NCBI GenBank assembly: GCA_003132585.1
Contig: PKYG01000091.1
Span: 18,893-64,385, forward strand
Direction: 5' to 3'
DNA length: 45,493 nucleotides
Origin: Actinomycetota bacterium
Lineage (GTDB): Bacteria; Actinomycetota; Thermoleophilia; UBA2241
The position numbers were made by a program, and so were the translations under genes. Positions 1,431 through 25,680 of the stretch are shown in pieces. The stretch's first letter is position 1. Every line of letters begins with the position of its first letter. The notes below the pieces were generated by a model that searched no databases, had not been told where the DNA came from, and was given only the letters and a program-made list of their open reading frames with translations.

Positions 1431-1443
1431 TCTCGCCCTTCGC

Positions 1444-1565
1444 ACCTATCGCTTAGGACAATACGCAGACTGCATAACACCCCAACCCACGCGTGAAATG
1501 ATGTCTTACGTAGAAAGGCGTAGGCTACGGGGCGTGTTACACAGTCTGCATAATCACTGTTGGGC
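1444..1565 (+). repeat. Long attC-like element, family copy 1 of 3
   Basis: Imperfect palindrome ATACGCAGACTGCATAACAC...GTGTTACACAGTCTGCATAA ending in GTTGGGC (1559-1565); top-strand C.A mismatches become G.T pairs on the bottom strand; left R'' degenerate. Confidence 0.7.
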
Positions 1566-1645
1566 AGAGCTGGCGGCAAGGTCGGAGGGGCGAGGATCTT
1601 CATCATCCGCGGCAGGTGTCCTTGATCGACGGAAGGGGGAGACGC

Positions 1646-2410
1646 ATGTCCAGTGCATCGGAGCGACCGCAAGGACCTGCGAGAGGCCAAGGAACCGGAA
1701 TGCCCGGCGAAGGCGTTCACCTGGCGCCGGGCAAGATGGCTAGAATCGCGGGCGGCTTCTACCTCGCGTTCGTCCTAGCCTCGGTGCTTGCCGGCGCGTT
1801 GGGGCACATCGGGATGGGTGGAGCGGAGCAGGTTTACCAGGCGATCGTCACGAGTGTTGGGTCGTTTCGCCTCGCGCTTGTTGTCGCGCTCATATCAGCC
1901 TTCCTGTTCCTCATGGCCGCCTGGAGTCTCTATGTCCTTCTGCGGCCGATCAACGAGCGGCTGGCGCTGCTCTTCCTGCTGCTCAACGCAATCGGCGTTG
2001 CCATACAGTGCGCAAGCATGTTCCCGCTCATATCCGCGTTGTTGCTCGGAGACGGTGCCAGTCGGATGCAGGCGTACTCGGCGCCGCAGCTGGAGGGACT
2101 GGCCTACTTGTCCATCAACCTCTACAAGACGGGCTTCGTCACGGCCCAGCTGTTCTTCGGCACGTGGCTGTTCCCGCTAGGCTATCTGGTGTACAAGTCC
2201 GGATTCCTTCCCAGGTTCCTGGGCGTCCTGCTGATACTCGACGGTTTCGGTGTCTTGATCTGGTTCCTTCAGGCCCTACTGCTGCCGGCCTACCCCGCGA
2301 TCAGCTACCCAGCGTGGGCCCTAGGCTTCATTGCTGAAGTCGGGCTGGGATTGTGGCTCCTCGTCAAGGGTGTGGAGATTGTCGACACCGAAGCGGGTCT
2401 AGCCGGCTAA
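1646..2410 (+). CDS. DUF4386-like multi-pass membrane protein (cassette)
   Basis: ARIAGGFYL, LYVLLRPIN, FFGTWLFPLGYLVYKSGFLPRFLG; ATG 1646 after GGAAGGGGGAG. Confidence 0.8.
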   Translation: MSSASERPQGPARGQGTGMPGEGVHLAPGKMARIAGGFYLAFVLASVLAGALGHIGMGGAEQVYQAIVTSVGSFRLALVVALISAFLFLMAAWSLYVLLRPINERLALLFLLLNAIGVAIQCASMFPLISALLLGDGASRMQAYSAPQLEGLAYLSINLYKTGFVTAQLFFGTWLFPLGYLVYKSGFLPRFLGVLLILDGFGVLIWFLQALLLPAYPAISYPAWALGFIAEVGLGLWLLVKGVEIVDTEAGLAG

Positions 2411-2430
2411 TCGGCGTCCCGCGATTGCCT

Positions 2431-2514
2431 GCCCAACAAAGGCATCAACCCGACGGCGCAAGCGCCGTCCGACCGAGAGCGTATCGGCCGCGGGTTATGC
2501 CTACACCGTTGGGC
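2431..2514 (+). repeat. attC recombination site (canonical, 84 bp)
   Basis: R'' GCCCAAC 2431-2437 and R' GTTGGGC 2508-2514 fully complementary; L'' GGCATCAACCCG vs L' CGGGTTATGCC with one extrahelical base. Confidence 0.93.
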
Positions 2515-2548
2515 GGCTCTCTAGGATGAAGTGAGGTGGAACTCAAGA

Positions 2549-3379
2549 ATGGATTGCGAACTCAAGGACACCACAGTTCACTATGAAGCGTTGGGTGAGG
2601 GCAGACCCATCGTCATGCTCCATGGTTGGTCTATAGACCATCGCCATATGGTGAGTGATATGGAACCACTCTTCAGGCAGCGTGACGGATGGAAACGCAT
2701 CTATCTTGATTTGCCTGGTCACGGAACGACGCCAGGAAAGGATTGGATCACTAACCAAGACAGGATGCTAGACGTCGTTTTGGATTTCATTGATAGCCTT
2801 ATCCCTGGGCAACGGTTCGTGGTGGCCGGCGCGTCAGCCGGAGCGTATCTTGCCCGTGGCGTAGTCCATCACCGATCGGCATCAATAGATGGATTGCTGC
2901 TGACCGTCCCCCTGATCGTGGCTGACGATGCAGAACGGCATGTGCCTTCTCCCGTTACCCTGGTAGCGGACCCTGCGCTTGTGTCCGAATTGGGACCAGA
3001 TGAGGCGGAGGGGTTGTTCCAGATCGCCGTTGTTCAGAGTCGAAAGGTTGTTGATTACATTCGGGCCAATTTTACGTCTGGAAGTGAGACTGGTGATCAG
3101 GCCTTCCAGGCGAAGATCAGAGAGCATCCGGAGAACTACGCGTTCTCATTTGACGTGGATGCGCTTCCCAAGCCATTTCCTGCTCCAACGCTCATAGTCG
3201 CAGGTAGACAAGATTCTGTCGCTGGTTATCGCGACGCCTGGGGAATCCTGGAGAACTATCCGAGGGGAACATTTGTCGTCCTGGATCGTTCAGGGCATTT
3301 CTTGCCCTTTGAGCAAGAAGACCTGTTCCACGCGTTAGTGGGTGAGTGGCTTGACAGAGTGGAGGAATACGCTGCTTGA
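2549..3379 (+). CDS. Alpha/beta hydrolase (cassette, lower GC)
   Basis: LHGW, DLPGHG, GASAG nucleophile elbow, GRQD, SGHFL. Confidence 0.9.
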   Translation: MDCELKDTTVHYEALGEGRPIVMLHGWSIDHRHMVSDMEPLFRQRDGWKRIYLDLPGHGTTPGKDWITNQDRMLDVVLDFIDSLIPGQRFVVAGASAGAYLARGVVHHRSASIDGLLLTVPLIVADDAERHVPSPVTLVADPALVSELGPDEAEGLFQIAVVQSRKVVDYIRANFTSGSETGDQAFQAKIREHPENYAFSFDVDALPKPFPAPTLIVAGRQDSVAGYRDAWGILENYPRGTFVVLDRSGHFLPFEQEDLFHALVGEWLDRVEEYAA

Positions 3380-3438
3380 CGGGACCTTACTGCTGTATGG
3401 TTACCAATTCGCCTCTACTCATTGAAAGGAGAAAGCGT

Positions 3439-3750
3439 ATGTCCCAGAAAATTCTGCAAGTCAATATGAAGTTCAGCATTCCAAGAGCCGATCTGGAGGC
3501 AGCATGGCTCCCCGTCGCCCAACCGATTGCCGACTTGCCCGGTCTGCTCTGGAAGGTCTGGTTGATGAACGAGGCAGAACACGAGGCGGGCGGCATCTAC
3601 CTGTTTGAAAGCGAAGCCGCTGCGCAGTCGTATCTGGCTGGCCCGATCGTGGCAGCACTCAAGGCCAGCCCTGCAGTCAGCAATATCAGCGCCAAGTTGT
3701 TCGATGTGATGGAAAGCCATACCGCAATCACCCGCGGTCCGCTGAAGTAG
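3439..3750 (+). CDS. YdhR-family putative monooxygenase
   Basis: PGLLWKVWLMNE..EAGGIYLFESE..AQSYL; RBS AAAGGAG. Confidence 0.85.
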   Translation: MSQKILQVNMKFSIPRADLEAAWLPVAQPIADLPGLLWKVWLMNEAEHEAGGIYLFESEAAAQSYLAGPIVAALKASPAVSNISAKLFDVMESHTAITRGPLK

Positions 3751-3790
3751 GCGTTGGACGCCCACTCCGCCGCCACCACTCCCGAACCAG

Positions 3791-4609
3791 ATGGCGATGA
3801 CAGTCGATTTGAGGCTACGGGTGCTACGCCGTGCCGTAACGGAGCTCATCGCCTTCGAGAGTGATCTTGAGGCGAGGCTCGAGCGGGAGCGAGACGTGGT
3901 TCGCGCGTATCCCGAGGCCCTGGCTGCCATCGAGCGCTTCCGGCCGACGGTGCACGCCCAGCGGGACCGACTCGTGAGCTACCTCGAGGGCATCGGTGGC
4001 GCCGAGGCGGGGGCCGCCATAGAAAGCGGCTTGACGTTCACTCCCGCCGCCGGGGTTTCGGGGGCGTTGCGCGGCATCTGCGTCGCATTCAATCACGGCG
4101 CGATCGGCTACGCGATGCTGTACGAGACGGCGCTCCGTCTGTACGAGCCCGCTCTCCGGGAGATCGCGCCGGAGCACTTGGAGGCCTACGTTGATGCGGC
4201 GTCAACGCTCTACCGTCTTGTGCCAGCCGCTGTAGCCTGGGAGTTGGCCCAGGACGGGTTTCATTGCTCCTGCATCTGCCCTATGTGCGGGCTCGGAGCC
4301 TGCGGGTGCGTTGCCCACGGGACACAGACTCTGGTGGAGGCCTGGCGCGAGGCGATGGCCGCTGAATCGGCACTGCCCGGCTTCGGTCTCCAGCCTCCCA
4401 AGCCCGAGAGTGAGCTAGCGCGGGCCGGTGTGCGCGGCGGAGAACGACTCCTCGCCGTCGACGGCCAAGAAGTCCGCTCCGTGGCCGACATTCAGGCCGC
4501 GATTCGGAAGCACGCGCTCGGGGAGAAAGTGCGGCTCCTGGTCCAGCGAGGTTCGAAACCTGCGCGCGAGATCGGCGTCAGGCACGTCAGCGACTATCTC
4601 GAGACATAA
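3791..4609 (+). CDS. Ferritin-like helical domain + Cys-rich motif + C-terminal PDZ domain protein
   Basis: Helical N-terminus, CSCICPMCGLGACGC, then SELARAGVRGGERLLAVDGQEV..IQAAIR..GEKVRLLVQRG (PDZ). Confidence 0.65.
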   Translation: MAMTVDLRLRVLRRAVTELIAFESDLEARLERERDVVRAYPEALAAIERFRPTVHAQRDRLVSYLEGIGGAEAGAAIESGLTFTPAAGVSGALRGICVAFNHGAIGYAMLYETALRLYEPALREIAPEHLEAYVDAASTLYRLVPAAVAWELAQDGFHCSCICPMCGLGACGCVAHGTQTLVEAWREAMAAESALPGFGLQPPKPESELARAGVRGGERLLAVDGQEVRSVADIQAAIRKHALGEKVRLLVQRGSKPAREIGVRHVSDYLET

Positions 4610-4641
4610 TGAGTGCGTTCCGCAGCTGAGGAGGTGTAGTC

Positions 4642-5088
4642 GTGGATGCGAACCAGAACGCGCCCGCGTTTGCTCGTCACGAGATCCACATCGAGGCCCC
4701 GCCGGAGATGGTCTGGGCGCTTCTGTCAGACATCGATCGATGGAGCTCATGGCAACCGGACATCGCCACCGCGAGGTTGACTGGACCGCTTGCCCCAGGC
4801 TCCACATTCAAATGGAAATCGGCAGGCACCGGCGTCTCTTCGACGCTCGCAGAAGTCGACCCGCCGCGCCGACTTGGGTGGACCGGTCGCGCGATGGGCG
4901 CCAGGGCCAAGCACGTCTGGATGCTCGAGCCGCAGGGTTCCGGAACGACGGTCACGACGCAGGAATCGTTCGAGGGCCTGGTCGTGGTGCTGCTGAAGAA
5001 GAGGATGCAGCGCCTGCTCGATGACTCGCTCCAGAAATGGCTTGCGCGGCTCAAAGAAGCTGCGGAGCAGTCGTCGACCCGCGCCTAA
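4642..5088 (+). CDS. SRPBCC (polyketide cyclase/START-like) protein
   Basis: IHIEAPPEMVWALLSDIDRWSSWQP...LKEAAE; RBS GAGGAGG; stop TAA lies inside GCCTAAC. Confidence 0.88.
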   Translation: MDANQNAPAFARHEIHIEAPPEMVWALLSDIDRWSSWQPDIATARLTGPLAPGSTFKWKSAGTGVSSTLAEVDPPRRLGWTGRAMGARAKHVWMLEPQGSGTTVTTQESFEGLVVVLLKKRMQRLLDDSLQKWLARLKEAAEQSSTRA

Positions 5089-5116
5089 CCAGCGCGTCGC
5101 CAGTGCACCGTTGACG
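5083..5116 (+). repeat. Collapsed attC remnant
   Basis: R''-like GCCTAAC overlaps the SRPBCC stop, followed by CAGCGCGTC and a GTTGACG only 27 bp later; central arms missing. Confidence 0.5.
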
Positions 5117-5150
5117 CTCCCCTGCCGCTGTGGCTATACTTCGGATAGCC
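5111..5150 (+). promoter_or_regulatory. Promoter and palindromic operator of mazEF
   Basis: TTGACG-N18-TATACT; inverted repeat GGCTAT-N7-ATAGCC (5132-5150) over the -10. Confidence 0.7.
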
Positions 5151-5164
5151 ATTGGAGGTGCGGC

Positions 5165-5413
5165 ATGATCACCAAGGTCCAGAAGTGGGGCAACAGCCAG
5201 GGTCTTCGCTTGAGCAAGGAGCTGCTCTCGACCGTCCGCATCGACGTCGGGGACGTGGTGGACATCAGCGTGCACGACGGCGCGCTCGTCATCACACCGG
5301 CGCGCCGCGTCAGAGGCGGACTCGACCTCGCGCAGCTCGTCGAGCGCATCCCGGCGGACTACAAGCCGGAAGAGCTCGACTGGGGTCCGCCGGCCGGCCG
5401 GGAGGTCTGGTAG
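5165..5413 (+). CDS. mazE: AbrB/MazE-family antitoxin
   Basis: MITKVQKWGNSQGLRL...LDWGPPAGREVW. Confidence 0.92.
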   Translation: MITKVQKWGNSQGLRLSKELLSTVRIDVGDVVDISVHDGALVITPARRVRGGLDLAQLVERIPADYKPEELDWGPPAGREVW

Positions 5414-5749
5414 ATGGCGGCCTACGTCCCTCGCAAGGGGGACTTCGTCGCGGTGACATTCGACCCGCGGTCCGGGCACGAACAGCGCGGCCGCCGACTG
5501 GCGCTCGTCGTCAGCAACGACCTGTTCAACAAGGCCACGGGGCTCTGTATTGCGTGTCCCGTGACCAACACACGGCGCGACTACCCGTTCCACGTCTCGA
5601 TCCCTGACGGCCAAGACGTGACCGGGATGGTGATGGTGGAGCAGGTGAAGTCACTCGACTTCCGCTCCCGCAACGTCAAGCGCATCGGGACCGCGCCTGC
5701 GCCGGTGCTGGAGGAAGTGCTCTCGATACTGGATGCCTGCATCTACTGA
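5414..5749 (+). CDS. mazF: PemK/MazF-family toxin
   Basis: YVPRKGDFV..FDPRSGHEQRGRRLALVVSND.FN...EQVKSLDFRSR. Confidence 0.93.
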   Translation: MAAYVPRKGDFVAVTFDPRSGHEQRGRRLALVVSNDLFNKATGLCIACPVTNTRRDYPFHVSIPDGQDVTGMVMVEQVKSLDFRSRNVKRIGTAPAPVLEEVLSILDACIY

Positions 5750-5824
5750 GAACTGCCTTGCCCCACGGAAGCATTATCGTTAGTATAGACGTTGTACGTT
5801 CTTGTTATCGATAAGGAGGTCGTG

Positions 5825-6031
5825 GTGGAAACGGTGACCATCTCGCCCAAGTTCCAGGTCGTCATCCCCAAGCGCATCCGTGAGAGACTCGGCCTGCATC
5901 CCGGCCAGAAGGTCCAGGCGATCCAGTATGGCGACCGCGTGGAGCTGGTTCCGGTGAGGCCGATCAGGCAGATGCGCGGCTTCCTGCGCGGCATCGACAC
6001 CGACGTGCCGCGCGAGGGTGATCGCCTGTGA
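5825..6031 (+). CDS. vapB: AbrB-family antitoxin (VapB-type)
   Basis: TISPKFQVVIPKRIRERLGLHPGQKV; RBS AAGGAGGT; overlaps toxin start. Confidence 0.85.
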   Translation: METVTISPKFQVVIPKRIRERLGLHPGQKVQAIQYGDRVELVPVRPIRQMRGFLRGIDTDVPREGDRL

Positions 6032-6408
6032 ACGTCGTCGACTCCTCCGCCTGGCTCGAGTACTTCGCCGCCGGTCCCAACGCCGACTTCTTCGCCGACG
6101 CCGTAGAGGCGACCGACGAGCTGGTGGTGCCCACGGTAAGCGTCTACGAGGTCTTCAAGCGCGTCCTGCAGCAGCGCGGCGAGGGCGACGCGCTCCAGGC
6201 GGTCGCGCTCATGCAGCAGGGCTCAGTGGCCGAGCTCACGACGCCGATCGCGCTCGAGGCGGCGCGCACCAGTGCGGCACTCGGCATCCCCATGGCGGAC
6301 AGCATCATCCTCGCTACAGCGCGAGCGTTCGAAGCTACGCTCTGGACACAAGATGCGGACTTCGCGGAGATCGAGGGCGTCAAGTACGTCCCGGTGAAGT
6401 CGGCGTGA
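6028..6408 (+). CDS. vapC: PIN-domain VapC toxin
   Basis: VVDSSAWLEYF, YEVFK, MADSIILATA, LWTQDADF. Confidence 0.92.
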   Translation: MNVVDSSAWLEYFAAGPNADFFADAVEATDELVVPTVSVYEVFKRVLQQRGEGDALQAVALMQQGSVAELTTPIALEAARTSAALGIPMADSIILATARAFEATLWTQDADFAEIEGVKYVPVKSA

Positions 6409-6518
6409 TTTCAACACTCAGACCGCCTCACACCCCAACCCACGCGTGAAATGACGTCGTACGTGGAAAGGCGTACGCTACGGTGCGCGTTACACCGTCT
6501 GCATGACCACTGTTGGAC
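6409..6518 (+). repeat. Long attC-like element, family copy 2 of 3
   Basis: Shares CACCCCAACCCACGCGTGAAATGA...GAAAGGCGTA.GCTACGG..CG.GTTACAC.GTCTGCAT with copy 1; ends GTTGGAC (6512-6518). Confidence 0.7.
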
Positions 6519-7087: not shown

Positions 7088-8269
7088 ATGAATCGCAGGC
7101 TTCTCTTTACAGCACTGTTCGCGGTCGCCGCGATCGCGGTGCTCGGCGTGGTCGGTTGGAGGCACTCGCCGCAGGCCGGCGCGAGCACGCCACTGCCGAC
7201 TCCCTCACCGAGCTTCTCCGCGATCTGGATGTCGACGATCAACGTGGAGTACAACGGCTCGAGCACCCGCATCGAAACGGGGACCTTCCTCGCCGATGGG
7301 GCCGGCGACGTGCGTGTGCGTGAGTCGCAGGGGGCCATGGGCCGCAGCTCGGCGATAATCGTCTACGACAACTCGTCCCAGACGCTGACGCGGGCGCGCA
7401 ACAGTAGCGACGGCAGCGTCGGCTACTGGCGCAGTACCAACATGTCGCCCGACTACGGCATGCGGGACAGCGTCGTCTCGCCGTTTGAGTACATCTACAG
7501 TGCCGCCACGATCGTCAAAGCGGCGCTGGTCGAGAACGACCCCGCGATCGCGGTCACCGAGACGACCTGCCTGGGCCGTCCCGCCTGGCAGGCCGCGTAC
7601 ACCAAGCACGGGTGGCAGCACACGATTACGGTCGACCAGGCGACCGAGTTTCCGCTGCGCTACGTCCTCGTCGACATTCGCGCGCCGCGGACGAGCAAGA
7701 GCGTCTGGCGCGTGGTCGACATCGAGACCGACGTGCCGGTGACCGCGGCTGACTTCACGCTGGAGATCCCCGCCGGCGCCCCGATCGACAGTACCAGCCT
7801 GTACGAGCACTTCACGACGACCGACCAGATCGCCGCCAACGTCGGCTATCAACCCTTCCTGCCGGCCTGGCTTCCCGATAGCTGCGTGCTTGCCTCGGCA
7901 TCGACGCTGCCCGACCCCTGGGGCCCATACGGCTGGATCTTCCCCTTCTCGCACCCCTGGGTCGACCTCTCCACCCTGCCCGACAACGAGGCGCACCTCT
8001 ACTACCATCGCGGCTTCGACTGGTTCACCGTGATCGAGTCGCCGCGGATCGGCACCGCCAACTCCGTGCCCGCCGGGCTCGATCAACACCCGCCCTTCGC
8101 CTATCGCAAGACCGTCCTTGCAGTCGGCGCCTTTGCCGGCAAGACGGCGCGTACGTGGATGGGCGACGGCACCACGCTCTACGTTCAGAACGGCACGTAT
8201 GCCGTCGAGATCACAGGAGACCTGACACGCAGCGAGATACTGGCTGTGGCGGCCTCGCTGCAGCAGTAG
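7088..8269 (+). CDS. Secreted/anchored protein with LolA/RseB-like domain and C-terminal DUF4367-like domain
   Basis: N-terminal TM, PTPSPS linker, TITVDQATEFPLRY...ADFTLEIPAGA, PFLPAWLP, EITGDLTRSEILAVAASL. Confidence 0.6.
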   Translation: MNRRLLFTALFAVAAIAVLGVVGWRHSPQAGASTPLPTPSPSFSAIWMSTINVEYNGSSTRIETGTFLADGAGDVRVRESQGAMGRSSAIIVYDNSSQTLTRARNSSDGSVGYWRSTNMSPDYGMRDSVVSPFEYIYSAATIVKAALVENDPAIAVTETTCLGRPAWQAAYTKHGWQHTITVDQATEFPLRYVLVDIRAPRTSKSVWRVVDIETDVPVTAADFTLEIPAGAPIDSTSLYEHFTTTDQIAANVGYQPFLPAWLPDSCVLASASTLPDPWGPYGWIFPFSHPWVDLSTLPDNEAHLYYHRGFDWFTVIESPRIGTANSVPAGLDQHPPFAYRKTVLAVGAFAGKTARTWMGDGTTLYVQNGTYAVEITGDLTRSEILAVAASLQQ

Positions 8270-8331
8270 CGTCGTCTCAAGACGCGACGTTCGACGGGAC
8301 GGAGGGTCTCGCCGTCCGACGGAGGTGAGCA

Positions 8332-8814: not shown

Positions 8815-8830
8815 CGGAGGTTGGGAGCAA

Positions 8831-9466: not shown

Positions 9467-9476
9467 TGCGGCGGTC

Positions 9477-10094: not shown

Positions 10095-10159
10095 CGCGTC
10101 CCAGCCGAGGAGTAGACTGAGGCGCAAGGACGCGCCGCTGAACCGCGAGAACCTTAGGC
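10088..10159 (+). repeat. Degenerate attC
   Basis: Right arm GCGCCGCTGAACCGCGAGAAC-CTTAGGC (G of GTT changed to C); left arm eroded. Confidence 0.5.
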
Positions 10160-10172
10160 ACACGGGGGGTCA

Positions 10173-14222: not shown

Positions 14223-14230
14223 CCGGCGCC

Positions 14231-15119: not shown

Positions 15120-15262
15120 GGTGAACCGCATTCTGGGGTTCCACGGGCCTACAGCAGCAGACTTGCGACCAACGAATTGTCGGAACAGGCTCGGACCAGC
15201 TGTTCACCCGGTGGGCACTGCTTGGCGCACCGATGGACAATGCTCAGTATTGAGAGGCAGCG

Positions 15263-18200: not shown

Positions 18201-18865
18201 ACGTTTCGGGCTGGAGGACTCATGATCGCACCTTCAATCAGCTGATAGGCGACTGGATCCTACGCGGAATCATCGATGGCCACCTCAGCTATGACGACCC
18301 GCTTGTACAGAGCTGGTTTGAGCACGCCGACGCCGAGCTTCGGGGGGATGCGCTTGGTCATCTTGCCTGGCTAATGACGAGGTGGGGTTCGGTACCAGAT
18401 GACGTTGTCGAACGGGTGGCAGATCTCTGGGACCGCCGCGTGGCTCATGTGAAGGAACACCGGGAAGATGCGGCCGAATTGGCAGGCGTCTACTGGCTGG
18501 CGCGCTCAGAGAAGTACGAAGTCCAGTGGTGGCTGCCGAGACTGGAGTACGCGTCATCCGTTGTGCCGGACTTCCGCACACGCGGCATGCTTGGCGAGTG
18601 CTTGGCCGGTGCCTCCGCTGTCGACCCGGATACAGCACTCAAGGTAGTTGAGAACGTGCTCGGCGAACGTGGATCTCATAGCTCGAGTATGGAGTACGAC
18701 CTGATGGAGCGTGCCGTGCCGCAGGTGATCGCCTCAGCACTTGACACAGGCGAAGCCGAACTTAAGCAGCGAGCGACAGACCTGATGAATCGGCTCGGAA
18801 GAGCTGGATACATCGACCTTCAAGACCGGGTCGAGCAGCTTCGCAGAGCGTCCGATGAAGAGTAG
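15263..18865 (+). CDS. 1200-aa hypothetical protein: HEPN-like N-terminus + long alpha-helical region; candidate defence protein
   Basis: Long intact ORF with atypical codon usage; SHCVRELMNNLP...FFMSFAH N-terminal domain; WPEIGYL, LSINTVR, W-rich helical region reminiscent of sensor regions of SIR2/STAND defence proteins. Confidence 0.6.
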   Translation: MGADDTATLWNQDRQSLHGLIGEVDPALAGLYRQAILLMDSQPMPGDDKARLSLVSHCVRELMNNLPDALGDVKDFPANRRGDEEKARADLIAAVEMLEGMPRDQPVEAGSPLDKPGKVTVPADFLDAAVNFAGVFKDGETRVRLRDSAALLGYIDRYHPALKPWKAARDFFMSFAHLDRHKSDRPGGHGLPTDERVMAHIAIIEASMRVRLGAFFDSLNEVRALAGQANEVGADGIEVPSDDDVRAILARLGSLQLRRAFYAQFENPYWVGALAKQDAFGNPPATEVMPDGTVRSDPWPEIGYLVRMAPVASIEVGGVLERIADSSSQWVRRGIAEAATVLAPEDAAGLVPKMKEWPGGELANFRIDPNDITQVIVRLLGSTERAKGRQLANAYFTPRPPSETPKFGSPEPVAGIDSYWYAEGLPAVAEALGSDRVPALAGWLREYQMHSNSYAGERHYDFSHIWRSSIRTSAEHHAREIGDSLVDVLRSALSEETQQSTEPLARLLQDDQPLLRRLALDVLAEAIDQVEDKSDENTADLSEHEAELVVQAAGVLTDETFTESEYSAEYHPFIRACLAWRAVVDVSPFFAFVRMGPLALRDERRERFADDGDTAADTAARIDDYRKRWQHTMLTMVGAAGLPEDLREMLTALDAEYGTLEVSDGEMHFRSFRGPSSPIDAETMQNLSDDDLIEHLRSWHPETDNWTGPSHRGQGHVLAEALSSQPGRLGDRIEDLKTLRPTYIRSVIGSWREAIKAGKVLPWGEIVPLCEWVTGLGDDTTVASEGDPFDDDSDYRNLKFEVLQLLEAGLAIQPRDEDPGIGETNAGRIGAILASFSDNPEPTPEYEVKYGGSNMDPLTLSINTVRPGAIRALIRLVHRFPETDAAADALAIIDRHIAGVDASLAVAAAVGEGTGRLFESAHSWIEERVAAIFGVRLPTTEYQQVALSMALAIHLFHTPLLELLRRPILLMIEEIGRVEHVSGWRTHDRTFNQLIGDWILRGIIDGHLSYDDPLVQSWFEHADAELRGDALGHLAWLMTRWGSVPDDVVERVADLWDRRVAHVKEHREDAAELAGVYWLARSEKYEVQWWLPRLEYASSVVPDFRTRGMLGECLAGASAVDPDTALKVVENVLGERGSHSSSMEYDLMERAVPQVIASALDTGEAELKQRATDLMNRLGRAGYIDLQDRVEQLRRASDEE

Positions 18866-19036
18866 CGACGGCAGCTGCAATGTCGCGGGAGCGGCCTGGC
18901 TGATGTGCGTCCCGACGGGAGGTCTCGCATTCTTCGTGACGACTGTTATCGCCCCCATTTGCCAGAAGCCTACTCGGGCGTCACTGCCTTGGATCGGTCA
19001 TGGATGCCGTCACGGTTGGCAAAGCATGTCAGTCCC

Positions 19037-19096
19037 TGCTAACAAACGGATCAACCTGGCTCGCTTCGCTCGCAGGTTATCCGTCAGACGTTCGCC
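19037..19096 (+). repeat. attC site (60 bp)
   Basis: TGCTAAC-AAA-CGGATCAACCTG...CAGGTTATCCG-TCAGAC-GTTCGCC; L box with single extrahelical base. Confidence 0.9.
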
Positions 19097-19132: not shown

Positions 19133-22100
19133 TCACGCCTTCTCGATGCTTGATTCGACGATTGCGATATCGTCGTCGGTGAGACCGTACGCAGCATAGA
19201 CAGCAACGTCTACGCGAGCCCGCAGCATCGTCGCCTCTCTCTCCCAGCGTCGTTGATCTTCCGAAACACGACACAGCTGGACTTGCTTCTTGGCTTCCTG
19301 CAGCGCAGTCACTGACTCGGTGATGTCATCGTGGATTCGTCTCTCATGTGCGTTGTTGGGACTCAGCACGCGAACCGGCCGTCTCTCGATGTACTGCTTG
19401 TTCGCGGCATAGTAGCCGCCTCGGAAGCTGGTTGAGATGCGCTTGAGGTAGAAGTCGAGTGCTCGATTGTTCAGAAGCGCACAGAGATACGCCATCGACC
19501 CGAAGGAGGGGTCGACGGTGAGGCCGTAGCCTCCCGTGGTCACGTTGATGAAGTAGAAGTTGTCGGTCAAATCGCAGTAGGCGGCTAGGTCAGTGACCAT
19601 ATACGGGACAAGCAGTTTAGGCTGCTCCCAGCACCCGAGGTTCTGGGTGCGACCGAACCGATACCACGACGCATCTCTGAACCCACCGTGCTCGCGGGCT
19701 TCGAGTTCGCAACGATTGAGCTCCAGATAGGCACGGGCAAGTGGATAGCGATCCTGCAGCGCCTGTCCGGTAAGAAGATGCGCATCGGTGCCCACGAGGT
19801 CGTACGGAAACAGAACCTTCGCCGTCGCGTGCGCCCAGTATTGGCCAATCGAGCCGCTACGGACGACGTCTTTCAAGGCCGCCGACTCAAGCGTTACCCA
19901 CCTGCCAATCGACTTCGAGAACACGTCCGTCAGCCCGCTCTCTTGAGACAGGTTATGCTCCTTAAACACGAAGACCGGATCCGCGCTGGTCTGTTGCCCA
20001 ACGAACATGCCCGTAACAACATCGCGCAAGCGGACCGGCATGGTATCGAGCCGCTCGAACAAGCTCGCGCACCGTCCAACAACGAAAGCCCAGTCCGAAC
20101 TCCCATAGGAATCGGCCGGCAGCTCGTCGACAATCGGCTTCTCACCATTGCGCCAAGCTGGAATATCGTCAACCGGCACAAAGGCGAAGCGTGGTGAACG
20201 TGCCTTGCTGAGAAGAAGGAGGCACGTGTACGTCGAAGCGTTGGTGAAGACCTGGCTGTGGCCAAAGTGAACGACCCGATCTAGGTGCCCGCCCTTGGCG
20301 AGTAGGCCGCGCAACGGCTCCCCGTACTGTGCGTTGAAGAACTTGTGCGGCAGGATGTAGCCAAGGCGGCCGGCCTCGTTGAGCAGAGACAGGCCCCGCT
20401 CGACGAACACCACGTAGATGTCGTAGTTGCCCTTGCTCGCCGCGACGTATCGCTTCTTGTAGAACTCAACTTCGCGCGGCGCGAACTCCTTCAGGTTCTG
20501 GATGCGGATATACGGCGGATTCCCGATCACTGCGTCGAACCCGCGCTGCTCCTCCGGCACCGCCTTCCCCTGAATCTGCGGGAACTCCGCCTCCCAGTCG
20601 AAGACGTTGATGCGGTAGCGCTCCTCGTCGTCGAGGCCGGTGAGACCGAGCTGCTGATCGTCGTAGAAGTCCGGGCCGATCAGCGAATTGCCGCACTTGA
20701 TGTTGGCGGCCAGGTCGGGCAGGGCGCGCTCGTGCAAGAAGCTGAGCTGGGCGTCGATTGTCTCCGACGTCTCGCCCTCGAGCACCTTGAGCAGCAGGCT
20801 CAGTTTGGTCGTCTCCACGGCCTGGGAGTCGATGTCGACGCCGTAGATGTTGTTCAGCAGTATCCGCTTCTTTTCGGCCGTGGTGAGCTGCCACTCGCCG
20901 GCGCGGCCCTGCACGATCGGCTTGTTCTTCTTGTCGAGCGCGTGCTCCACGTACCAGTCGCGGTGCCAGTCGAGCAGGCACTGGTAGGCGCCGATGAGGA
21001 ACGAGCCCGAGCCGCAGGCGGGATCGAGGATGCGGAGGTCGGCCGCCTGCTTGGGCGCAAGCCCCTCGAGCAGGCGGCCCACTGTGTTCTTGACGATGTA
21101 GTCGACGATGTAGGTCGGCGTGTAGTACACGCCGCCGGCCTTCTTGACCTCGGGCTTGTCCTCGACCTTGGCCTGGTGCCCCGTCGTGAGGCGGATCACC
21201 TTGCCGAGGAACTGCTCGTAGACCTGCCCCAGGATGTCGGCGGGCAGCACGCTGAACTCGTACGGGCTCTCCGGGTAGTACAGCCGCTTGAGGATCTCCT
21301 TGAGCACCCTGTCGTCGATCACCAGATCGGGGGTGAGCGTGTCGGGCGCGTCCGCGCGCCCCCTCTCTTGCTCGAAGTGGAAGAGGCCGGAGTTGTAACG
21401 ATGGTCGGCCTCGAAGAACAGGGTTCTCAGCCGCTCCCACACGTTCTGGCCGTTCACCAGACCCTGCAGCCGCCCGTAGGGTTCGATCAGCCGGTCCTCG
21501 CAGATGCGCAGGAAGATGATGCGGTCGATCGTCGCCTGCACGGCGTAGTTGAGCTCGCGCGTGCTCAGCGAGCGGTTGCGCAGCGCGATGTTGCGCGCGA
21601 GCTCGTCGCGCCAGCTCTCGATCTCCTTGAGAAAGGCGGTGTCGACCTCGGCCGTGCCCTTCTTCGCCTTGGTCGACTCGGCGTACTGGTCGAACGAGCC
21701 CTTGTAGATCGCGTCCTTGCTGAAGATCGACGCGATCTCGTCCCAGCGGTGCTCGTACTCGTCGAAGGTCGCGTACATGATGCGTGCGACCGGCGATTTG
21801 TCGGTGTTCGCCGGTCGCACGCGGCAGTCGTAAACGACGAACTCCTGGAAGTCGGTGACGATGCTCAGCGGCAGCTTGGCCGACCAGGCGTAGCGGCGAA
21901 GCTGGTAGGCCGGGCTGGGGTCGTCCTTGAGGTTGACCGCGGGCTTCTTCGCCTCGACAAAGAACTTGCGCGCGCCTCCTACTCTGAACGAGTAGTCCGG
22001 CGCCCGGCTGTCGATGCCCACCTTGATCGCGTCTTCGTGCACCACGTCGCGGTACTGCGGCGCGTTGCCGGCGGAGTTGTCGACGTCCCAGCTCAGCGCC

Positions 22101-22222
22101 TTGAAGAACGGGTCGATGAACTCGATGCGCACCTGGGTCTCGTTGTAGGCGGGGTTGAGATAGGTGGTGAAGTTGTGCCTGAAGCGCTCAACGAGCTCGA
22201 CAACCGCATCGGGTGCGCCCAC
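19133..22222 (-). CDS. Single-chain type IIG (Eco57I/TaqI-like) restriction-modification enzyme
   Basis: N-terminal PDY...VEAKK nuclease, GVYYTP, LDPACGSGSFL, GNPPY m6A MTase motifs, C-terminal TRD. Confidence 0.92.
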   Translation of the reverse strand: MGAPDAVVELVERFRHNFTTYLNPAYNETQVRIEFIDPFFKALSWDVDNSAGNAPQYRDVVHEDAIKVGIDSRAPDYSFRVGGARKFFVEAKKPAVNLKDDPSPAYQLRRYAWSAKLPLSIVTDFQEFVVYDCRVRPANTDKSPVARIMYATFDEYEHRWDEIASIFSKDAIYKGSFDQYAESTKAKKGTAEVDTAFLKEIESWRDELARNIALRNRSLSTRELNYAVQATIDRIIFLRICEDRLIEPYGRLQGLVNGQNVWERLRTLFFEADHRYNSGLFHFEQERGRADAPDTLTPDLVIDDRVLKEILKRLYYPESPYEFSVLPADILGQVYEQFLGKVIRLTTGHQAKVEDKPEVKKAGGVYYTPTYIVDYIVKNTVGRLLEGLAPKQAADLRILDPACGSGSFLIGAYQCLLDWHRDWYVEHALDKKNKPIVQGRAGEWQLTTAEKKRILLNNIYGVDIDSQAVETTKLSLLLKVLEGETSETIDAQLSFLHERALPDLAANIKCGNSLIGPDFYDDQQLGLTGLDDEERYRINVFDWEAEFPQIQGKAVPEEQRGFDAVIGNPPYIRIQNLKEFAPREVEFYKKRYVAASKGNYDIYVVFVERGLSLLNEAGRLGYILPHKFFNAQYGEPLRGLLAKGGHLDRVVHFGHSQVFTNASTYTCLLLLSKARSPRFAFVPVDDIPAWRNGEKPIVDELPADSYGSSDWAFVVGRCASLFERLDTMPVRLRDVVTGMFVGQQTSADPVFVFKEHNLSQESGLTDVFSKSIGRWVTLESAALKDVVRSGSIGQYWAHATAKVLFPYDLVGTDAHLLTGQALQDRYPLARAYLELNRCELEAREHGGFRDASWYRFGRTQNLGCWEQPKLLVPYMVTDLAAYCDLTDNFYFINVTTGGYGLTVDPSFGSMAYLCALLNNRALDFYLKRISTSFRGGYYAANKQYIERRPVRVLSPNNAHERRIHDDITESVTALQEAKKQVQLCRVSEDQRRWEREATMLRARVDVAVYAAYGLTDDDIAIVESSIEKA

Positions 22223-22411: not shown

Positions 22412-23014
22412 ATGAGTCAAGTCGTTGGGAGTCAAGCCATTGCGACGACTCCCAAAGCCAAAGCAGGACCATTCGTGCCCTTGTGGGGTGTTGCAGTCTC
22501 CGGCGCGGTCATTGTGGCGCTCATCGTGACCATCGCCAGCAACTCGCACTTCGGGCTGGATTTCTTCCATGTCTTCGGCGGCGCCCTGTGGGTCAGTATC
22601 GATCTCTTCATGGGCTTCATCATCGGCCCGATCATGGGCCGGCTGGACATTCCCGCCCGAATGGTGTTCTCCAAGAACCTGATGACAAAGATGATGGTCG
22701 TCATGCCCACCGTGGTGATCTGCACTCTGACGTCAGGCTGGCAGCTTGCCCGCTTGGACAATCTCTTCACCACCCCGTACTCGCCCCAGCACGGCTGGAT
22801 TCTGGCAGCGTTGATAGTGGTGGCCTTCCTCGCCATCATCGCCTACGCCTTTCTTGAACCAGCCAACATCGTGGTGCTCATGGAACTGCGCAAACCGGAA
22901 CCCAACGGCTTGCTTATCGGCAGGATGATGCGGCGCTTCCTCTATACCGCCGGCGTTTTGGGGATTCTGCAGCTCTCGATAATCGTCATCATGGTGAGGT
23001 TGGCGACATGGTGA
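22412..23014 (+). CDS. Multi-pass membrane protein (DUF2269/CopD-like)
   Basis: HVFGGALW, TLTSGWQLA, about 5 TMs; RBS GGAGGT. Confidence 0.7.
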   Translation: MSQVVGSQAIATTPKAKAGPFVPLWGVAVSGAVIVALIVTIASNSHFGLDFFHVFGGALWVSIDLFMGFIIGPIMGRLDIPARMVFSKNLMTKMMVVMPTVVICTLTSGWQLARLDNLFTTPYSPQHGWILAALIVVAFLAIIAYAFLEPANIVVLMELRKPEPNGLLIGRMMRRFLYTAGVLGILQLSIIVIMVRLATW

Positions 23015-23427
23015 ATACACCACAACCCTACGCCGGAGACACCAAGCGCTCACCAGTTATCGCGTGCATAGTAGGAACGATCATCTCCTGCATTCTGGCT
23101 GCCGGCATCATCATCGCGCATATTCCCGGACCGGCACCAATGTGGGGATCCATCATGTGGGTGTGCATAGCCGCGGTGCTGACCATAGCTACGATAGTTC
23201 TCATTCTCCGGAAGCGGCCATTCGCCCGGAACACGTTCTTCACTGTGGCGAAATGGGTGTTCCTGTACATCCTGGTGTTGACCGGGATGGGAGAGTACGT
23301 CATTGCATTTGACGGCACGAGGGGGGAACCGCTCGTCGTCATGACCATCATTCTTCTGCTGTTCCTGGTCAATATCCCGATGCTCTGGGGCTTCTCGGTC
23401 GCCCGCCACGAGCGGACTCCTGGTTGA
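23008..23427 (+). CDS. 4-TM hypothetical membrane protein coupled to the upstream gene
   Basis: Four hydrophobic segments; overlaps upstream stop. Confidence 0.7.
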   Translation: MVNTPQPYAGDTKRSPVIACIVGTIISCILAAGIIIAHIPGPAPMWGSIMWVCIAAVLTIATIVLILRKRPFARNTFFTVAKWVFLYILVLTGMGEYVIAFDGTRGEPLVVMTIILLLFLVNIPMLWGFSVARHERTPG

Positions 23428-23453
23428 TCGCGGCTGACCATAGGGCCGAGGTG

Positions 23454-23490
23454 TTGCCTTCCGCTGTCCCGCGGTTATACTTCTGGTATG
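23454..23490 (+). promoter_or_regulatory. TA promoter, probably leaderless transcript
   Basis: TTGCCT-N16-TATACT, ATG 6 nt downstream, no RBS; ATAC-N5-GTAT palindrome. Confidence 0.55.
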
Positions 23491-23724
23491 AAGACAGCGA
23501 TCTCCATCCCCGATGAACTCTTCGACGACGCCGAGAGGCTGGCCCTTGCGCTGAAGAAGTCACGCAGCCGGCTCTACGGCGACGCGGTGCGCGAGTACGT
23601 GGCGCGTCACTCGGCCGATGAGGTCACGGAGGCGCTCGACGTCATCTGCGCAGAAGCAACGTCGAGCGACAGTGACTTCGCCGTCACTGCGGCGCGGAGC
23701 ACGCTCGAGCGGTCCGACTGGTGA
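23488..23724 (+). CDS. RHH/CopG-type antitoxin (ChpI/MazE6-like)
   Basis: MKTAISIPDELFDDAERLA..LKKSRSRLY..AVREYV. Confidence 0.88.
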   Translation: MKTAISIPDELFDDAERLALALKKSRSRLYGDAVREYVARHSADEVTEALDVICAEATSSDSDFAVTAARSTLERSDW

Positions 23725-24062
23725 TCGCCCAGGGCGAGGTCTGGTGGGCCGAGCTGCGCGAGCCGTCGGGCTCCGAACCCGGCTTTCGGCGGCCGGTCGT
23801 CGTCGTGCAGGGCGATTCGTTCAACCGTAGTCGCATCGCCACCGTGGTGTGTGTCGCGCTCACCAGCAACCTGCACTGGGCAGAGGCTCCCGGCAACGTG
23901 TTGCTGACGTCGAAGGCGACGGGGCTGCCCAAGGACTCCGTTGCCAACGTGTCGCAGATCGTTGCGCTCGACCGAGCGTCGCTGACCGAGCGGGTCGGCA
24001 CCCTGCCCGACAAGAAGCTCGAGCTCGTGCTGAGCGGTATCGATATCGTGCTCGGTCGCTGA
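23721..24062 (+). CDS. mazF: PemK/MazF-family toxin
   Basis: GEVWWAEL..PSGSEPGFRRPVVVVQGDSFNRSRI...GLPKDSVANVSQI. Confidence 0.92.
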   Translation: MIAQGEVWWAELREPSGSEPGFRRPVVVVQGDSFNRSRIATVVCVALTSNLHWAEAPGNVLLTSKATGLPKDSVANVSQIVALDRASLTERVGTLPDKKLELVLSGIDIVLGR

Positions 24063-24097
24063 GGCGTTGGTCCTCTTCCCGGTCGCGTTCGGTTGAC

Positions 24098-24352
24098 ATG
24101 AATCCATTGACCGCCTTCGGCGCCGGAGCCGTCACTCTCATGCTGATCTCCTATGCACTGGAGCATCGCGCGGCTCTGTGGATATTGATCTTTGCCTTCG
24201 CCTGCGCTGCTTCGGCGGTCTACGCAGCGCTCGCGAATACTTGGCCCTTCATGGTCGTCGAAAGCATATGGGCGCTGGTAGCCTTGCGGCGGTGGTGGAC
24301 GACGCGCGGCTCAAGCCGTAGGCGCGGCCAACGAGGCAAGCGTTGGACGTGA
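24098..24352 (+). CDS. Small 3-TM membrane protein (CBU_0592-like)
   Basis: MLISYALE...WPFMVVESIWALVALRRW. Confidence 0.7.
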   Translation: MNPLTAFGAGAVTLMLISYALEHRAALWILIFAFACAASAVYAALANTWPFMVVESIWALVALRRWWTTRGSSRRRGQRGKRWT

Positions 24353-24939
24353 TATTCGACCTCGGCGGCGTGCTACTGACCTGGGATCCTCCCGCCATGC
24401 TCTCGTCCGTGTTCGAGGATCCCCACGAGCGTGCGCGGGTGCTCGATCGCCTCTTCGGCGATCCGGACTGGATCGAGCTCGACCGCGGCACGCTTCCGGT
24501 CGCAAAGGCGATCGAGCGCGCCGCGCAGAGAACGGGCATCAGCGCCGACAGGCTGCGCACCTTGTTCGATGTGATGCCTAGCTGGCTGGTGCCCGTGCCG
24601 GCGGCCATCGAGCTCGTCAGAGCCCTTCGGGCCGCCGGCAATCGACTGTTCGTGCTCTCGAACATGCAGCGCGCCACGCTTGCGCACATCGAGACCGCCT
24701 ACGACTTCCTTGCACTGTTCGACGGTCGCGTCTTCTCCTGCGAGGTCGGCGAGTGCAAGCCGGAGCCGGCGATCTATCGCCGCCTCCTCGACACATTCGC
24801 GCTCGACCCAAGCGCCACGGTGTTCATCGACGACCATCAGGCCAACCTCGACGCGGCGGCCGCGTTCGGCATCGCGACTATCAGGTTCGAGACGGTTGAG
24901 GGGTGCCGTGCGGAGCTCGAGGCGCTGGGGTGCGTCTAA
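24343..24939 (+). CDS. HAD-family phosphatase
   Basis: VIFDLGGVL, LSNM, KPEPAIY, FIDDHQANL; stop inside GTCTAAC (R''-like). Confidence 0.9.
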   Translation: MDVIFDLGGVLLTWDPPAMLSSVFEDPHERARVLDRLFGDPDWIELDRGTLPVAKAIERAAQRTGISADRLRTLFDVMPSWLVPVPAAIELVRALRAAGNRLFVLSNMQRATLAHIETAYDFLALFDGRVFSCEVGECKPEPAIYRRLLDTFALDPSATVFIDDHQANLDAAAAFGIATIRFETVEGCRAELEALGCV

Positions 24940-25331
24940 CCCAGGTGCGAACGCAGCCATGCCGCGAGTTCCTCTTCATCGAGTTCGCCGGCAGCGAGCG
25001 CGAGCATGACGGTCACGACCTCCGCCTCAGGCGCAGCGAGATCGCGGCCGTTGAGCCCCAGGAAGACCCCCATCGTCACGAAGGCGATGCGCTTGTTGCC
25101 GTCGTTGAACGGGTGACTCCGCGCCAGCCCGTGTCCGTACGTCGCAGCCAGACCGGCCAGATCGACTGTGGGCTCGTAGGCGAAGCGCTGCTGGGCACGG
25201 GCAAGCGCGGACTCCAGGGCGTGCTCGTCGCGGATGCCCGGCATCCCTCCATGCTCGCGGATCAGGTCGAGGTGCACTGCCTCGACGACCAGCCGGTCGA
25301 CCCACCGCGGCTCCGCGGTTTGACGCGCCAC
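24936..25331 (-). CDS. doc: Doc/Fic-family toxin
   Basis: HPFNDGNKRIAF Fic motif; HGGMPGIRD. Confidence 0.93.
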   Translation of the reverse strand: MARQTAEPRWVDRLVVEAVHLDLIREHGGMPGIRDEHALESALARAQQRFAYEPTVDLAGLAATYGHGLARSHPFNDGNKRIAFVTMGVFLGLNGRDLAAPEAEVVTVMLALAAGELDEEELAAWLRSHLG

Positions 25332-25334
25332 CGG

Positions 25335-25562
25335 CTACTTGGCCAGCTCGCGGAGTGCGTTGCGGTACTTCCCAGAGACCTTGGTAGCCAGAGCAAGCGC
25401 CTCCTCGGTCTGCGGGTCGTAGGGCGTGAGCAGGATGCCGCGATCGGTCTCGACGGCGAGCACGGTGTCGCCGGCCGACAGGTGGAGTCTCTCCGCCATG
25501 TCCTTGGGCAACGTGGCGCTGATCGAGCCCCCGGCCTGGCGCAACTTCAGTCCACGAGTCAT
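25335..25562 (-). CDS. AbrB-family antitoxin of Doc
   Basis: LKLRQAGGSISATLPKDM...LLTPYDP...YRNALRELAK; RBS GGAGG. Confidence 0.88.
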   Translation of the reverse strand: MTRGLKLRQAGGSISATLPKDMAERLHLSAGDTVLAVETDRGILLTPYDPQTEEALALATKVSGKYRNALRELAK

Positions 25563-25588
25563 GGATCCTCCAGTCGGTCGTGCAGAGT

Positions 25589-25606
25589 GTAGCATTCTAA
25601 TGCTAC
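25589..25606 (-). promoter_or_regulatory. Operator palindrome over the -10 of abrB-doc
   Basis: GTAGCATT-CT-AATGCTAC containing minus-strand TAGAAT. Confidence 0.7.
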
Positions 25607-25621
25607 CACATCGCGGGGCTC

Positions 25622-25680
25622 GGCTAACAGCGTGTCGAGCATGCGCGCTCCGCGCGCACCTCACGCGCTAGACGGTCGGC
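25622..25680 (+). repeat. attC site (59 bp, R' degenerate), last recognisable in the array
   Basis: GGCTAAC-AGCGTGTCGAG / CTCACGCGCT, central GCGCGCTCCGCGCGC hairpin, ends GACGGTCGGC. Confidence 0.7.

Follow-up and report, generated by a model that had tools for sequence, protein, structure and literature searches.

How a run of attC-bearing genes with no integrase of its own is to be understood in an actinobacterial chromosome is the question raised by the stretch of DNA analysed here (the window, 45,493 nt, on contig C85). The first-pass annotation had read positions 1431-25680 as a 24-kb cassette array starting straight after kbl, where intI and attI would be expected, and lacking a recombinase; an attC cluster lacking an integron integrase is termed a CALIN (Cury et al. 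2016, Neron et al. 2022). Two attC covariance models, R1 and then R2, were built from the host genome's own sites and briefly calibrated, and four of the six window sites, all except those at 11271 and 25617, were seeds of the first model. With filters off, R2 finds six matches in the window, all on the plus strand, at E ≤ 3e-5, where E-values are rough and seed scores circular because the models come from the host genome's own sites with short calibration. These are 2426-2519 (core 2431-2514; 76.7 bits, E 3e-16), 11271-11367 (a non-seed with a degenerate R' box; R1 25.6 bits, R2 46.1 bits, E 5.6e-9), 12343-12436 (R2 60.2 bits), 12873-12969 (58.4 bits), 19032-19101 (core 19037-19096; 59.0 bits) and, last in the window, a degenerate non-seed at 25617-25685 (R1 20.7 bits, R2 30.2 bits, E 3.1e-5). 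The best further match in the window under R2 with filters off has 13.1 bits (E 0.34), and a gap of 17 bits separates the weakest of the six from noise. All six sites and their uniform polarity had been proposed from the sequence, and both proposals hold. Across the 3.0-Mb genome R2 gives 33 matches at E ≤ 0.1, on 8 of 142 contigs. A search of the window with Rfam 15 gave no attC match; Rfam 15 may hold no attC model.

In an alignment of 31 sites, 90.3% of cells are paired, versus 25-37% when the partners are slid, and compensatory changes are seen in 12 of 17 pairs; covariation as high as this occurs in 0 of 500 shuffles, and the L stem of the model consensus contains an unpaired column. The bottom strand of attC 2431 folds at -29 kcal/mol (z -5.0 against shuffles) into an R stem and a singly bulged L stem separated by an internal loop, and the site at 11271 has z -2.6. 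Three of the six window bottom strands fold no more stably than shuffled sequences (z -1.4, -0.2 and, at 25617, -0.7), and two folded extracts ended 1-3 nt before R'. The window sites are supported as true attC sites, with R'', L'', L' and R' boxes, a RYYYAAC...GTTRRRY core and a bulged base. About eight additional attC remnants had been listed in the first-pass annotation, and these could not be upheld: there is no further significant model match, and three extra candidates chosen by eye (5083-5120, 10782-10817 and 14863-14941) show no folding advantage over shuffled sequences (z +0.2, +0.3 and +1.6). The bare RYYYAAC motif is barely enriched (52 occurrences versus 41.6 ± 6.2; 5 of 100 shuffles reach 52).

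The window attC sites are scarce relative to genes (six for about 29 ORFs, the gaps reaching 6-9 kb) and spaced 0.5 to 8.8 kb apart. The only tight cluster is that of 11271, 12343 and 12873, within 1.7 kb, and for each of the sites at 2426, 19032 and 25617 the nearest neighbour is over 6 kb away. The clustering rule for CALINs is 4 kb, and the three clustered sites form one (at least two close attC sites, no integrase). Because only these three are tightly clustered, "24-kb cassette array" overstates the continuity of the region. One might still suppose that there is a single continuous classical array, in effect a CALIN with some 30 cassettes, and that a lineage-specific model misses most of its attC sites because they belong to other sequence families. 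Short R''-to-R' motifs at gene ends (5083-5120, 10782-10817 and 24328-24347), R'-only motifs at 3753 and 24062, and a window module that lacks attC here and is a cassette in the relative G020 would fit this, as would the stop codons within RYYTAAC, of which several had been claimed and three are found (5083, 10782 and 24934). However, nothing besides the six sites exceeds 13.1 bits even with filters off, the three folded candidates have z above 0, and the region is split into segments by three attI-type elements. As R2 finds a site every 0.6-1.4 kb on contig C61, the model is sensitive to sites of the host genome. A continuous array is thus considered unlikely.

The attI-type elements are copies of a 115-nt element, found three times in the window, from which attI is thus not missing, and 13 times in the host genome. 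All three window copies are on the plus strand and are members of the direct repeat family D4: e1 (1459..1565, R box GTTGGGC at 1559-1565, nhmmer E 4e-41), e2 (6412..6518, GTTGGAC at 6512-6518, E 1.9e-38), which directly follows a VapC stop, and e3 (15013..15119, GTTAGCA at 15113-15119, E 2.6e-36). Its assignment as an attI-type site rests on homology with the DNA immediately 3' of intI, both in the host genome, where a copy directly follows the stop codon of intI on C61, and in relatives, where a copy is 3' of intI in six of nine intI loci. It also heads integrase-less arrays of relatives (G010:C4, E 1.8e-17; G023:C2, 6e-14; G003:C1, 6e-6), and there are several further integrase-less attI-headed arrays elsewhere in the host genome. 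Remnants of the last 13-22 intI codons adjoin the element on C60, C24, C25 and C22; a tblastn search of C85 with IntI detected neither intI nor an intI remnant alongside e1, e2 or e3. The element is predicted to be bound by IntI.

The e1 minus strand folds as a long hairpin (z -3.3), and the element has inverted and direct sub-repeats. Covariation is absent from the hairpin (score 0.084 versus 0.080 for shuffles, of which 194 of 500 reach the observed value), which is compatible with a double-stranded attI-type site. The hairpin, the sub-repeats and the 13 genome copies could also be taken to indicate some other dispersed repeat (MITE-like, a module with a leader or promoter, or a folded site resembling attC) that happens to adjoin arrays. 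This is quite improbable, given that the hairpin does not covary, that the element lies immediately 3' of intI on C61 and in most intI loci of relatives, and that its GTTRRRY end falls exactly at the cassette boundary, where in six of seven loci (e1, e3, C61, C25, C60 and C22b) the R box is complementary at 7/7 positions to the R'' box of the first attC. In the seventh locus, C22a, the R box is not 7/7 with the first attC.

Under the cassette register rule, the R'' box of each attC pairs with the TTRRRY that opens its own cassette. Behind e1, the attC R'' box GCCCAAC is complementary at 7/7 positions to the cassette start TTGGGC, and behind e3 the R'' box TGCTAAC at 19037-19043 pairs equally fully (7/7) with the cassette start TTAGCA. 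For e2 a cognate attC is lacking, and the closest partner is the site at 12348 (6/7). Among the 21 adjacent attC pairs up to 2.5 kb apart in the whole genome, R'' is 7/7 complementary to the upstream junction in ten and to its own local R' in none. The two close pairs in the window break this rule (3/7 and 4/7), and in the window it holds for two cassettes, those behind e1 and e3. Full 7/7 complementarity of R'' to the attI junction is the signature of IntI-catalysed insertion.

The genome encodes one intact integron integrase, at C61:27464-28405 (487.9 bits against a TIGR02249 cut-off of 265). It aligns full length, over residues 6-313, with VchIntIA (PDB 2A3V, E 8.8e-94), and the alignment includes the IntI-specific insertion and the HxxR and Y motifs. 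On C61, intI, attI and then 14 attC sites follow each other on one strand, with one attC per 0.6-1.4 kb. None of the 22 TIGR02249 matches is on C85, and tblastn with IntI finds none there either, in agreement with the earlier statement that the window has no recombinase. The expectation of an integrase in trans is likewise borne out by the genome search, and it is supported that the integrase for the window cassettes is encoded on C61, with the co-occurrence of C85 and C61 in one cell resting on binning and on shared site families, because the host genome is a draft (142 contigs, 91% complete, 2.7% contaminated). IntI is predicted to be active at present.

The host had been described as Thermoleophilia-like, and this placement is supported. 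All seven named relatives among the 120 RpoB matches listed are actinobacterial in label, comprising six Thermoleophilia MAGs (74-89% identity) and one Actinobacteria MAG (86%), and host RpoB is 60-66% identical to, and colinear with, that of four named Actinomycetota genomes. WhiB was not detected in any of 41 genomes of the class, an atypical feature for Actinomycetes. Of the 24 other genomes in the host family, 22 contain matching attC sites and 13 an IntI that exceeds the cut-off; neither is found in 16 genomes from six sister families. The integron system is therefore supported as native to the lineage, as the first reading had supposed. The same-strand order intI, attI, attC is seen also in relatives G010, G012, G019 and G021, and IntI relatives at ≥74% identity comprise at least 120 metagenomic protein clusters.

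The left flank of the region is a conserved kbl-like gene (234..1430, plus strand) that shares 86-94% of its DNA sequence with four relatives in the family and 75% with another, and in all five relatives compared homology ends at the kbl stop. The array-like region begins 29 nt beyond this stop, so that its start straight after kbl stands as first described; its continuity does not, as there are three attI-headed segments. The abrupt end of homology, together with the draft state of this metagenome-assembled genome and the GC content of parts of the island (0.57-0.61, versus 0.66-0.70 in the flanks), might point to an assembly or binning artefact, either a chimeric join at the kbl stop or an island from an organism other than that of the IntI contig. 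However, cassette arrays are expected to show a sharp boundary and a lower GC content, the attC and attI families of C85 occur also on C61, C22, C25 and C60, the kbl flank is 84-95% identical to that of family members, and cassettes of the island are found again in 49 of 60 family genomes, making an artefact very improbable.

There are 29 ORFs called in 1431-25680, of which 28 are on the plus strand. The first cassette (1560..2508, junction 7/7) consists of a DUF4386 membrane protein gene (Pfam; ORF 1616-2410) and its attC. It is 95% identical in G075, where it lies between an attI-like core and an attC, 99% identical in G076, and 84% identical in G020, on the intI contig of that genome. Cassette-like genes follow at 2531..6408, for an alpha/beta hydrolase, YdhR, a PDZ protein, SRPBCC, MazE/MazF and VapB/VapC (Pfam); the model search detects no attC in this stretch, and its toxin-antitoxin modules are patchily shared with relatives. 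Five consecutive ORFs at 7088..10787 have no match in Pfam, NCBIfam or PADLOC, and are followed by an Unstab_antitox antitoxin gene (10868..11098, Pfam E 1.3e-18). A glyoxalase/VOC cassette gene (12450..12860, Pfam) has DNA matches of 79-86% in four relatives. The 4Fe-4S protein and HAD hydrolase genes at 13028..14836 (Pfam) may belong to the core genome and not be cassettes; in G023, kbl has a Fer4 relative (66% amino-acid identity) as its neighbour. Behind e3 is a large cassette (15114..19090, junction 7/7) with a 1200-aa ORF (15263-18865) of weak Dsr1 similarity (PADLOC E 9.4e-8). All of these are on the plus strand, and the sole minus-strand gene of the region encodes a Type IIG restriction-modification enzyme (19133..22222; Pfam Eco57I; PADLOC REase_MTase_IIG, E 2.6e-251). 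Cassette-like plus-strand genes at 22412..25592 comprise two unknowns, a short ORF with MazF (23488-24062), a HAD hydrolase and one unknown (Pfam), and 23472-24066 is 78% identical to a G020 stretch between two attC sites of an intI-linked array. The cargo of the region is typical of chromosomal integrons.

The first interpretation is thus supported in a refined form, and it is concluded with good confidence that the window carries an integrase-less part of a distributed chromosomal integron, partly decayed and with orphan attI sites. Under this explanation e1, e2 and e3 would be orphan attI-type sites, each heading a run of cassette-type genes, and cassettes would have entered them when IntI, supplied in trans, recombined attI with attC at the R-box G|TT. 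The DUF4386 cassette (1560-2508) and that of the 1200-aa protein (15114-19090) have perfect sites and should stay mobilisable, and most other units would have lost their attC, or had it degraded, and would now be fixed. The toxin-antitoxin modules probably stabilise the region.

This integron resembles sedentary chromosomal integrons such as the Vibrio cholerae superintegron in its IntI, which carries the integron-specific insertion and matches 2A3V over its full length, in its homogeneous lineage-specific attC family with an R''/R' register along the array, and in a cargo of toxin-antitoxin modules, small unknown proteins, glyoxalases and defence genes. Unlike in V. cholerae, intI is oriented in the direction of attI and the cassettes, the cassettes occupy several loci with a separate attI-type site at each, and the host is Thermoleophilia-like and not proteobacterial. 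The inverted layout is usually cited for spirochaetes, Chlorobi, cyanobacteria and planctomycetes. It is seen here on C61 and in the four relatives with the same-strand order, and no actinobacterial family was found among inverted-layout taxa in the literature searched. [quoted passage not shown]

Xanthomonas integrons are reportedly ancient, vertically inherited and fixed in their chromosomal place, with intI often inactivated and arrays that persist. The arrays described here similarly outlast intI; however, intI is cut to 13-22 codons at several loci, with one intact copy elsewhere. Decayed integrases in Xanthomonas chromosomal integrons are reported in 10.1101/2025.06.18.660453. CALINs are reported to be common, with a wider distribution than that of complete integrons (PMC9668308, PMC9024848). 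The window is like a CALIN in having attC without a nearby integrase, most clearly in the three-site cluster. Unlike CALINs, the arrays here keep an attI-type head, some also the last intI codons, and three heads stand in tandem within 14 kb. Since they keep this head, the arrays could still capture cassettes.

Genome surveys of Actinobacteria give no complete integrons, one In0 and a few CALINs, according to the IntegronFinder 2.0 report (PMC9024848). The integrons described here extend across a whole Thermoleophilia-like family, in a group where they were thought nearly absent, and offer a natural system for asking why Gram-positive lineages rarely have them. The orphan attI sites suggest that integrase-less attC clusters can stay capture-competent. 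If so, CALINs would have to be interpreted differently, whatever the genome. As a more tentative extension, though one that we take seriously, a single IntI may serve many orphan attI pads scattered across the chromosome, and thus allow cassettes to be captured at several loci simultaneously; integrase-less attC clusters would then be active outposts of the integron, and not dead.

The island lies downstream of a kbl-like gene (234-1430), its left flank, and comprises about 29 ORFs (28 on the + strand), with GC of 0.57-0.61 in parts of this stretch versus 0.66-0.70 in the flanks. The host genome (G000) is a draft MAG (142 contigs, 3.01 Mb in total; completeness 91%, contamination 2.7%). The only Rfam matches above gathering score in the window are one tRNA and two c-di-GMP-II riboswitches, with no attC family matched, and a strict scan (RYYYAAC...GTTRRRY, at least 6/7 R''/R' complementarity) gave a single good site within the window and likewise a single one genome-wide. 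With these results in hand, the integrase gene intI was searched for before the attC sites; the strict scan was dropped because, within an array, each R' is part of the cassette that follows.

A single G000 match exceeds the cut-off of the integrase model TIGR02249, at C61:27464-28405 (487.9 bits versus 265), and none of the 22 weaker matches falls on C85, the contig carrying the window. Thus the window has no integrase, as the first-pass annotation had stated, and the IntI search elsewhere in the genome that it proposed yields one protein. This IntI aligns to VchIntIA (PDB 2A3V) over residues 6-313 (E 8.8e-94), and the aligned part covers both the catalytic motifs (HxxR and Y) and the integron-specific insertion. 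Immediately after intI come short ORFs in the same orientation, separated by sites resembling the attC sites noted in the window.

Two covariance models of attC were built. The first (R1), seeded with seven aligned sites (four from the window, three from C61), found another 23 in G000 and picks up both window sites that had been described as damaged and were not seeds (11271-11367, 25.6 bits; 25617-25685, 20.7 bits). The second (R2), built from 31 sites and run with filters off in the window, recovers all six sites located in the first-pass annotation (2431, 11275, 12348, 12878, 19037 and 25622) with the same + polarity (30-77 bits, E 3e-5 to 3e-16), the next-best window match having 13.1 bits. 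Across G000 it gives 33 matches at E <= 0.1, confined to 8 of the 142 contigs; both models are home-made and briefly calibrated. The about 8 remnants also proposed could not be substantiated, having no significant model match. Three candidates picked by eye (5083, 10782 and 14863) were rejected for lack of fold support (z > 0).

In the 31-site alignment, 90.3% of paired cells are complementary, versus 25-37% with partners slid, and compensatory changes are seen in 12 of 17 pairs (0/500 shuffles as high as observed), although its fitting to the model biases this alignment towards the structure. Folded as single-stranded DNA, the site 2431 bottom strand gives an R stem, an internal loop and a singly bulged L stem (-29 kcal/mol, z -5.0). 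Sites 19037 and 11275 have bottom-strand z-scores of -2.4 and -2.6, and sites 12348, 12878 and 25622 fold no better than shuffles (z -1.4, -0.2 and -0.7), two of the folded extracts having fallen 1-3 nt short of R'.

A 115-nt direct repeat occurs three times in the window (e1, 1459-1573; e2, 6412-6526; e3, 15013-15127), each copy ending in GTTRRRY, and 13 copies were found in G000 with nhmmer. Its 3' 60 nt match the C61 stretch from the intI stop to the first cassette. In relatives, the element directly follows intI in six of nine intI loci, with full-length matches 3' of intI in G010 (E 6e-17) and G006 (E 1e-14) from a profile made of integrase-less copies only, and it also heads integrase-less arrays of G010, G023 and G003 (the G012 match is weak, E 0.004). 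The last 13-22 intI codons precede the element on C60, C24, C25 and C22 (tblastn; blastn 74-80% over 76-84 nt), unlike the three window copies, which carry no intI remnant. The GTTRRRY box is 7/7 complementary to the first downstream attC R'' in six of seven loci (e1, e3, C61, C25, C60 and C22b), the exception being C22a. No cognate attC was found for e2, the best candidate being site 12348 (6/7). On these sequence comparisons, the element was concluded to be a predicted attI-type site, and one cassette was concluded to have entered at each of e1 and e3 through attI x attC recombination. A hairpin model of the element was rejected, since the long hairpin of e1 has no covariation in 10 copies (0.084 versus 0.080 shuffled; 194/500 shuffles as high). 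Thus the repeats within the element look like putative protein-binding sites rather than a folded site.

On C25, a tRNA-Asp gene (G000:C25:12340-12416; L105:3341-3417) is directly followed by the last-22-codon intI remnant, an attI-type site and four attC sites, with an apparent deletion of the integrase that reaches the tRNA gene. About 100 nt are nearly identical between the attI-type copies at G000:C22:46608-46753 and G000:C60:23156-23303, each of which has an intI 3' remnant; contig C22 stops 5 nt past its copy. The assembly was probably interrupted by this repeat, which makes the number of arrays at each locus uncertain.

IntI cuts between the G and TT of R'. Therefore, a TTRRRY just past a junction is part of the following cassette, whose own R'' it should pair with. 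This register rule is kept 7/7 in the first seven cassettes of the C61 array. Among adjacent attC sites of G000 at most 2.5 kb apart, complementarity to the upstream junction is 7/7 in 10 of 21 pairs, versus 0/21 for the local R'. The register shows true cassette insertion, independent of model scores. The close pairs in the window break it (11271 to 12343, 3/7; 12343 to 12873, 4/7), which fits decay or lost intervening sites.

The G000 RpoB shares 74-89% identity with six Thermoleophilia-labelled MAG proteins and 86% with one labelled Actinobacteria, the only named relatives among the 120 matches listed, bearing out the earlier description of the host as Thermoleophilia-like. It is also colinear with four named Actinomycetota genomes (60-66% identity), and a named Clostridia genome matches at 65% over part of the protein. 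Kbl proved uninformative for taxonomy or synteny, as its best matches in the genome_contigs collection are 56-64% identical and spread over many phyla. A WhiB-like protein (PF02467) was found in none of 41 genomes of the class (G000 and G001-G040), with a positive Corynebacterium control; this absence is unusual for a lineage labelled Actinomycetota. It was at first read as indicating Coriobacteriia, following a passage of PMC4255298, a placement dropped as the RpoB matches pointed to Thermoleophilia.

Of the 40 other genomes, 24 share the family of G000 and 16 represent six further families of the class. IntI above cut-off is found in 13 of the 24 versus none of the 16 (14/41 overall, counting G000 itself), and R2 matches at E <= 1e-5 in 22 of the 24 versus none of the 16, with up to 49 attC sites per family genome over several contigs. 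The IntI of G020 (L125:100-1050, G020:C15) is only 54.5% identical to that of G000, with two other compared family IntIs at 71-76%, which suggests a putative second integrase lineage within the family. Relative to the C61 protein, identity is 75-97% for one of these lineages and about 54% for the other. In five relatives with kbl orthologues, homology to C85 stops at the kbl stop in all, with no attC or attI-type match and no conserved synteny downstream; thus the island is specific to G000 among the genomes searched. Cassette 1, the DUF4386 cassette behind e1 (1560-2508), recurs at 95% identity in G075, there too flanked by an attI-like core and attC, as well as at 99% in G076, at 92% in G012 and at 84% in G020, where it is on the contig with intI. 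The counterpart of module 23472-24066 in the G020 array sits between two attC sites, and some part of the island is matched in 49 of 60 family genomes.

Five packed + strand ORFs at 7088-10787 (393, 160, 224, 205 and 204 aa) have no Pfam, NCBIfam or PADLOC match; they may make up a single multi-gene cassette, perhaps encoding a defence system. A 1200-aa protein (15263-18865) is carried on a perfectly bounded 4-kb cassette, and residues 660-809 give its only match, a weak and partial one to Dsr1 in PADLOC (E 9.4e-8). Its gene adjoins a type IIG restriction-modification gene on the opposite strand.

The two riboswitches (28002-28091 and 31985-32073, - strand; 65.4 and 60.6 bits, gathering score 40) are set among three paralogous genes (25807-26919, 26888-27937 and 29646-30689), the first of which, the only one scanned, encodes a PD40 beta-propeller. 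A further leader candidate, diverged from these two, is suggested at 28538-28634 by repeat D8. In repeat D19 (29543-29608 and 32291-32366), a 66-nt stretch matches the 3' portion of the tRNA-Ala gene at 76% identity. Together with repeats D1-D11, it looks like a putative tandem duplication of a segment made up of tRNA, riboswitch and propeller; the same repeats could alternatively be an old integration scar.

Passages of published surveys report no complete integrons in Actinobacteria (PMC9024848), describe a 'virtual absence' in Actinomycetota (PMC13323075) and list Actinobacteriota among phyla with integrons (PMC8618304). No paper was found on integrons of Thermoleophilia, Gaiellales or Solirubrobacterales; cases may be held in the surveys' supplementary genome lists. 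Proteins of Thermoleophilia MAGs are already annotated as integron integrases at NCBI. The parts are like those of a classical integron; however, the G000 system differs in its host, its same-strand intI-attI-cassette layout and its many orphan attI sites.

In the proposed mechanism, one IntI made from C61 would work in trans on attI-type and attC sites at several loci, with circular cassettes entering at G|TT of the attI-type site; within the window, e1 and e3 at least have taken up cassettes in this way. Older units would have lost their attC and now be fixed. Toxin-antitoxin pairs are known as stabilisers of such arrays, and the window carries MazEF, VapBC, an Unstab_antitox gene and a second MazF. 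On the simplest reading, the three tandem attI copies would be successive integron platforms with intI deleted.
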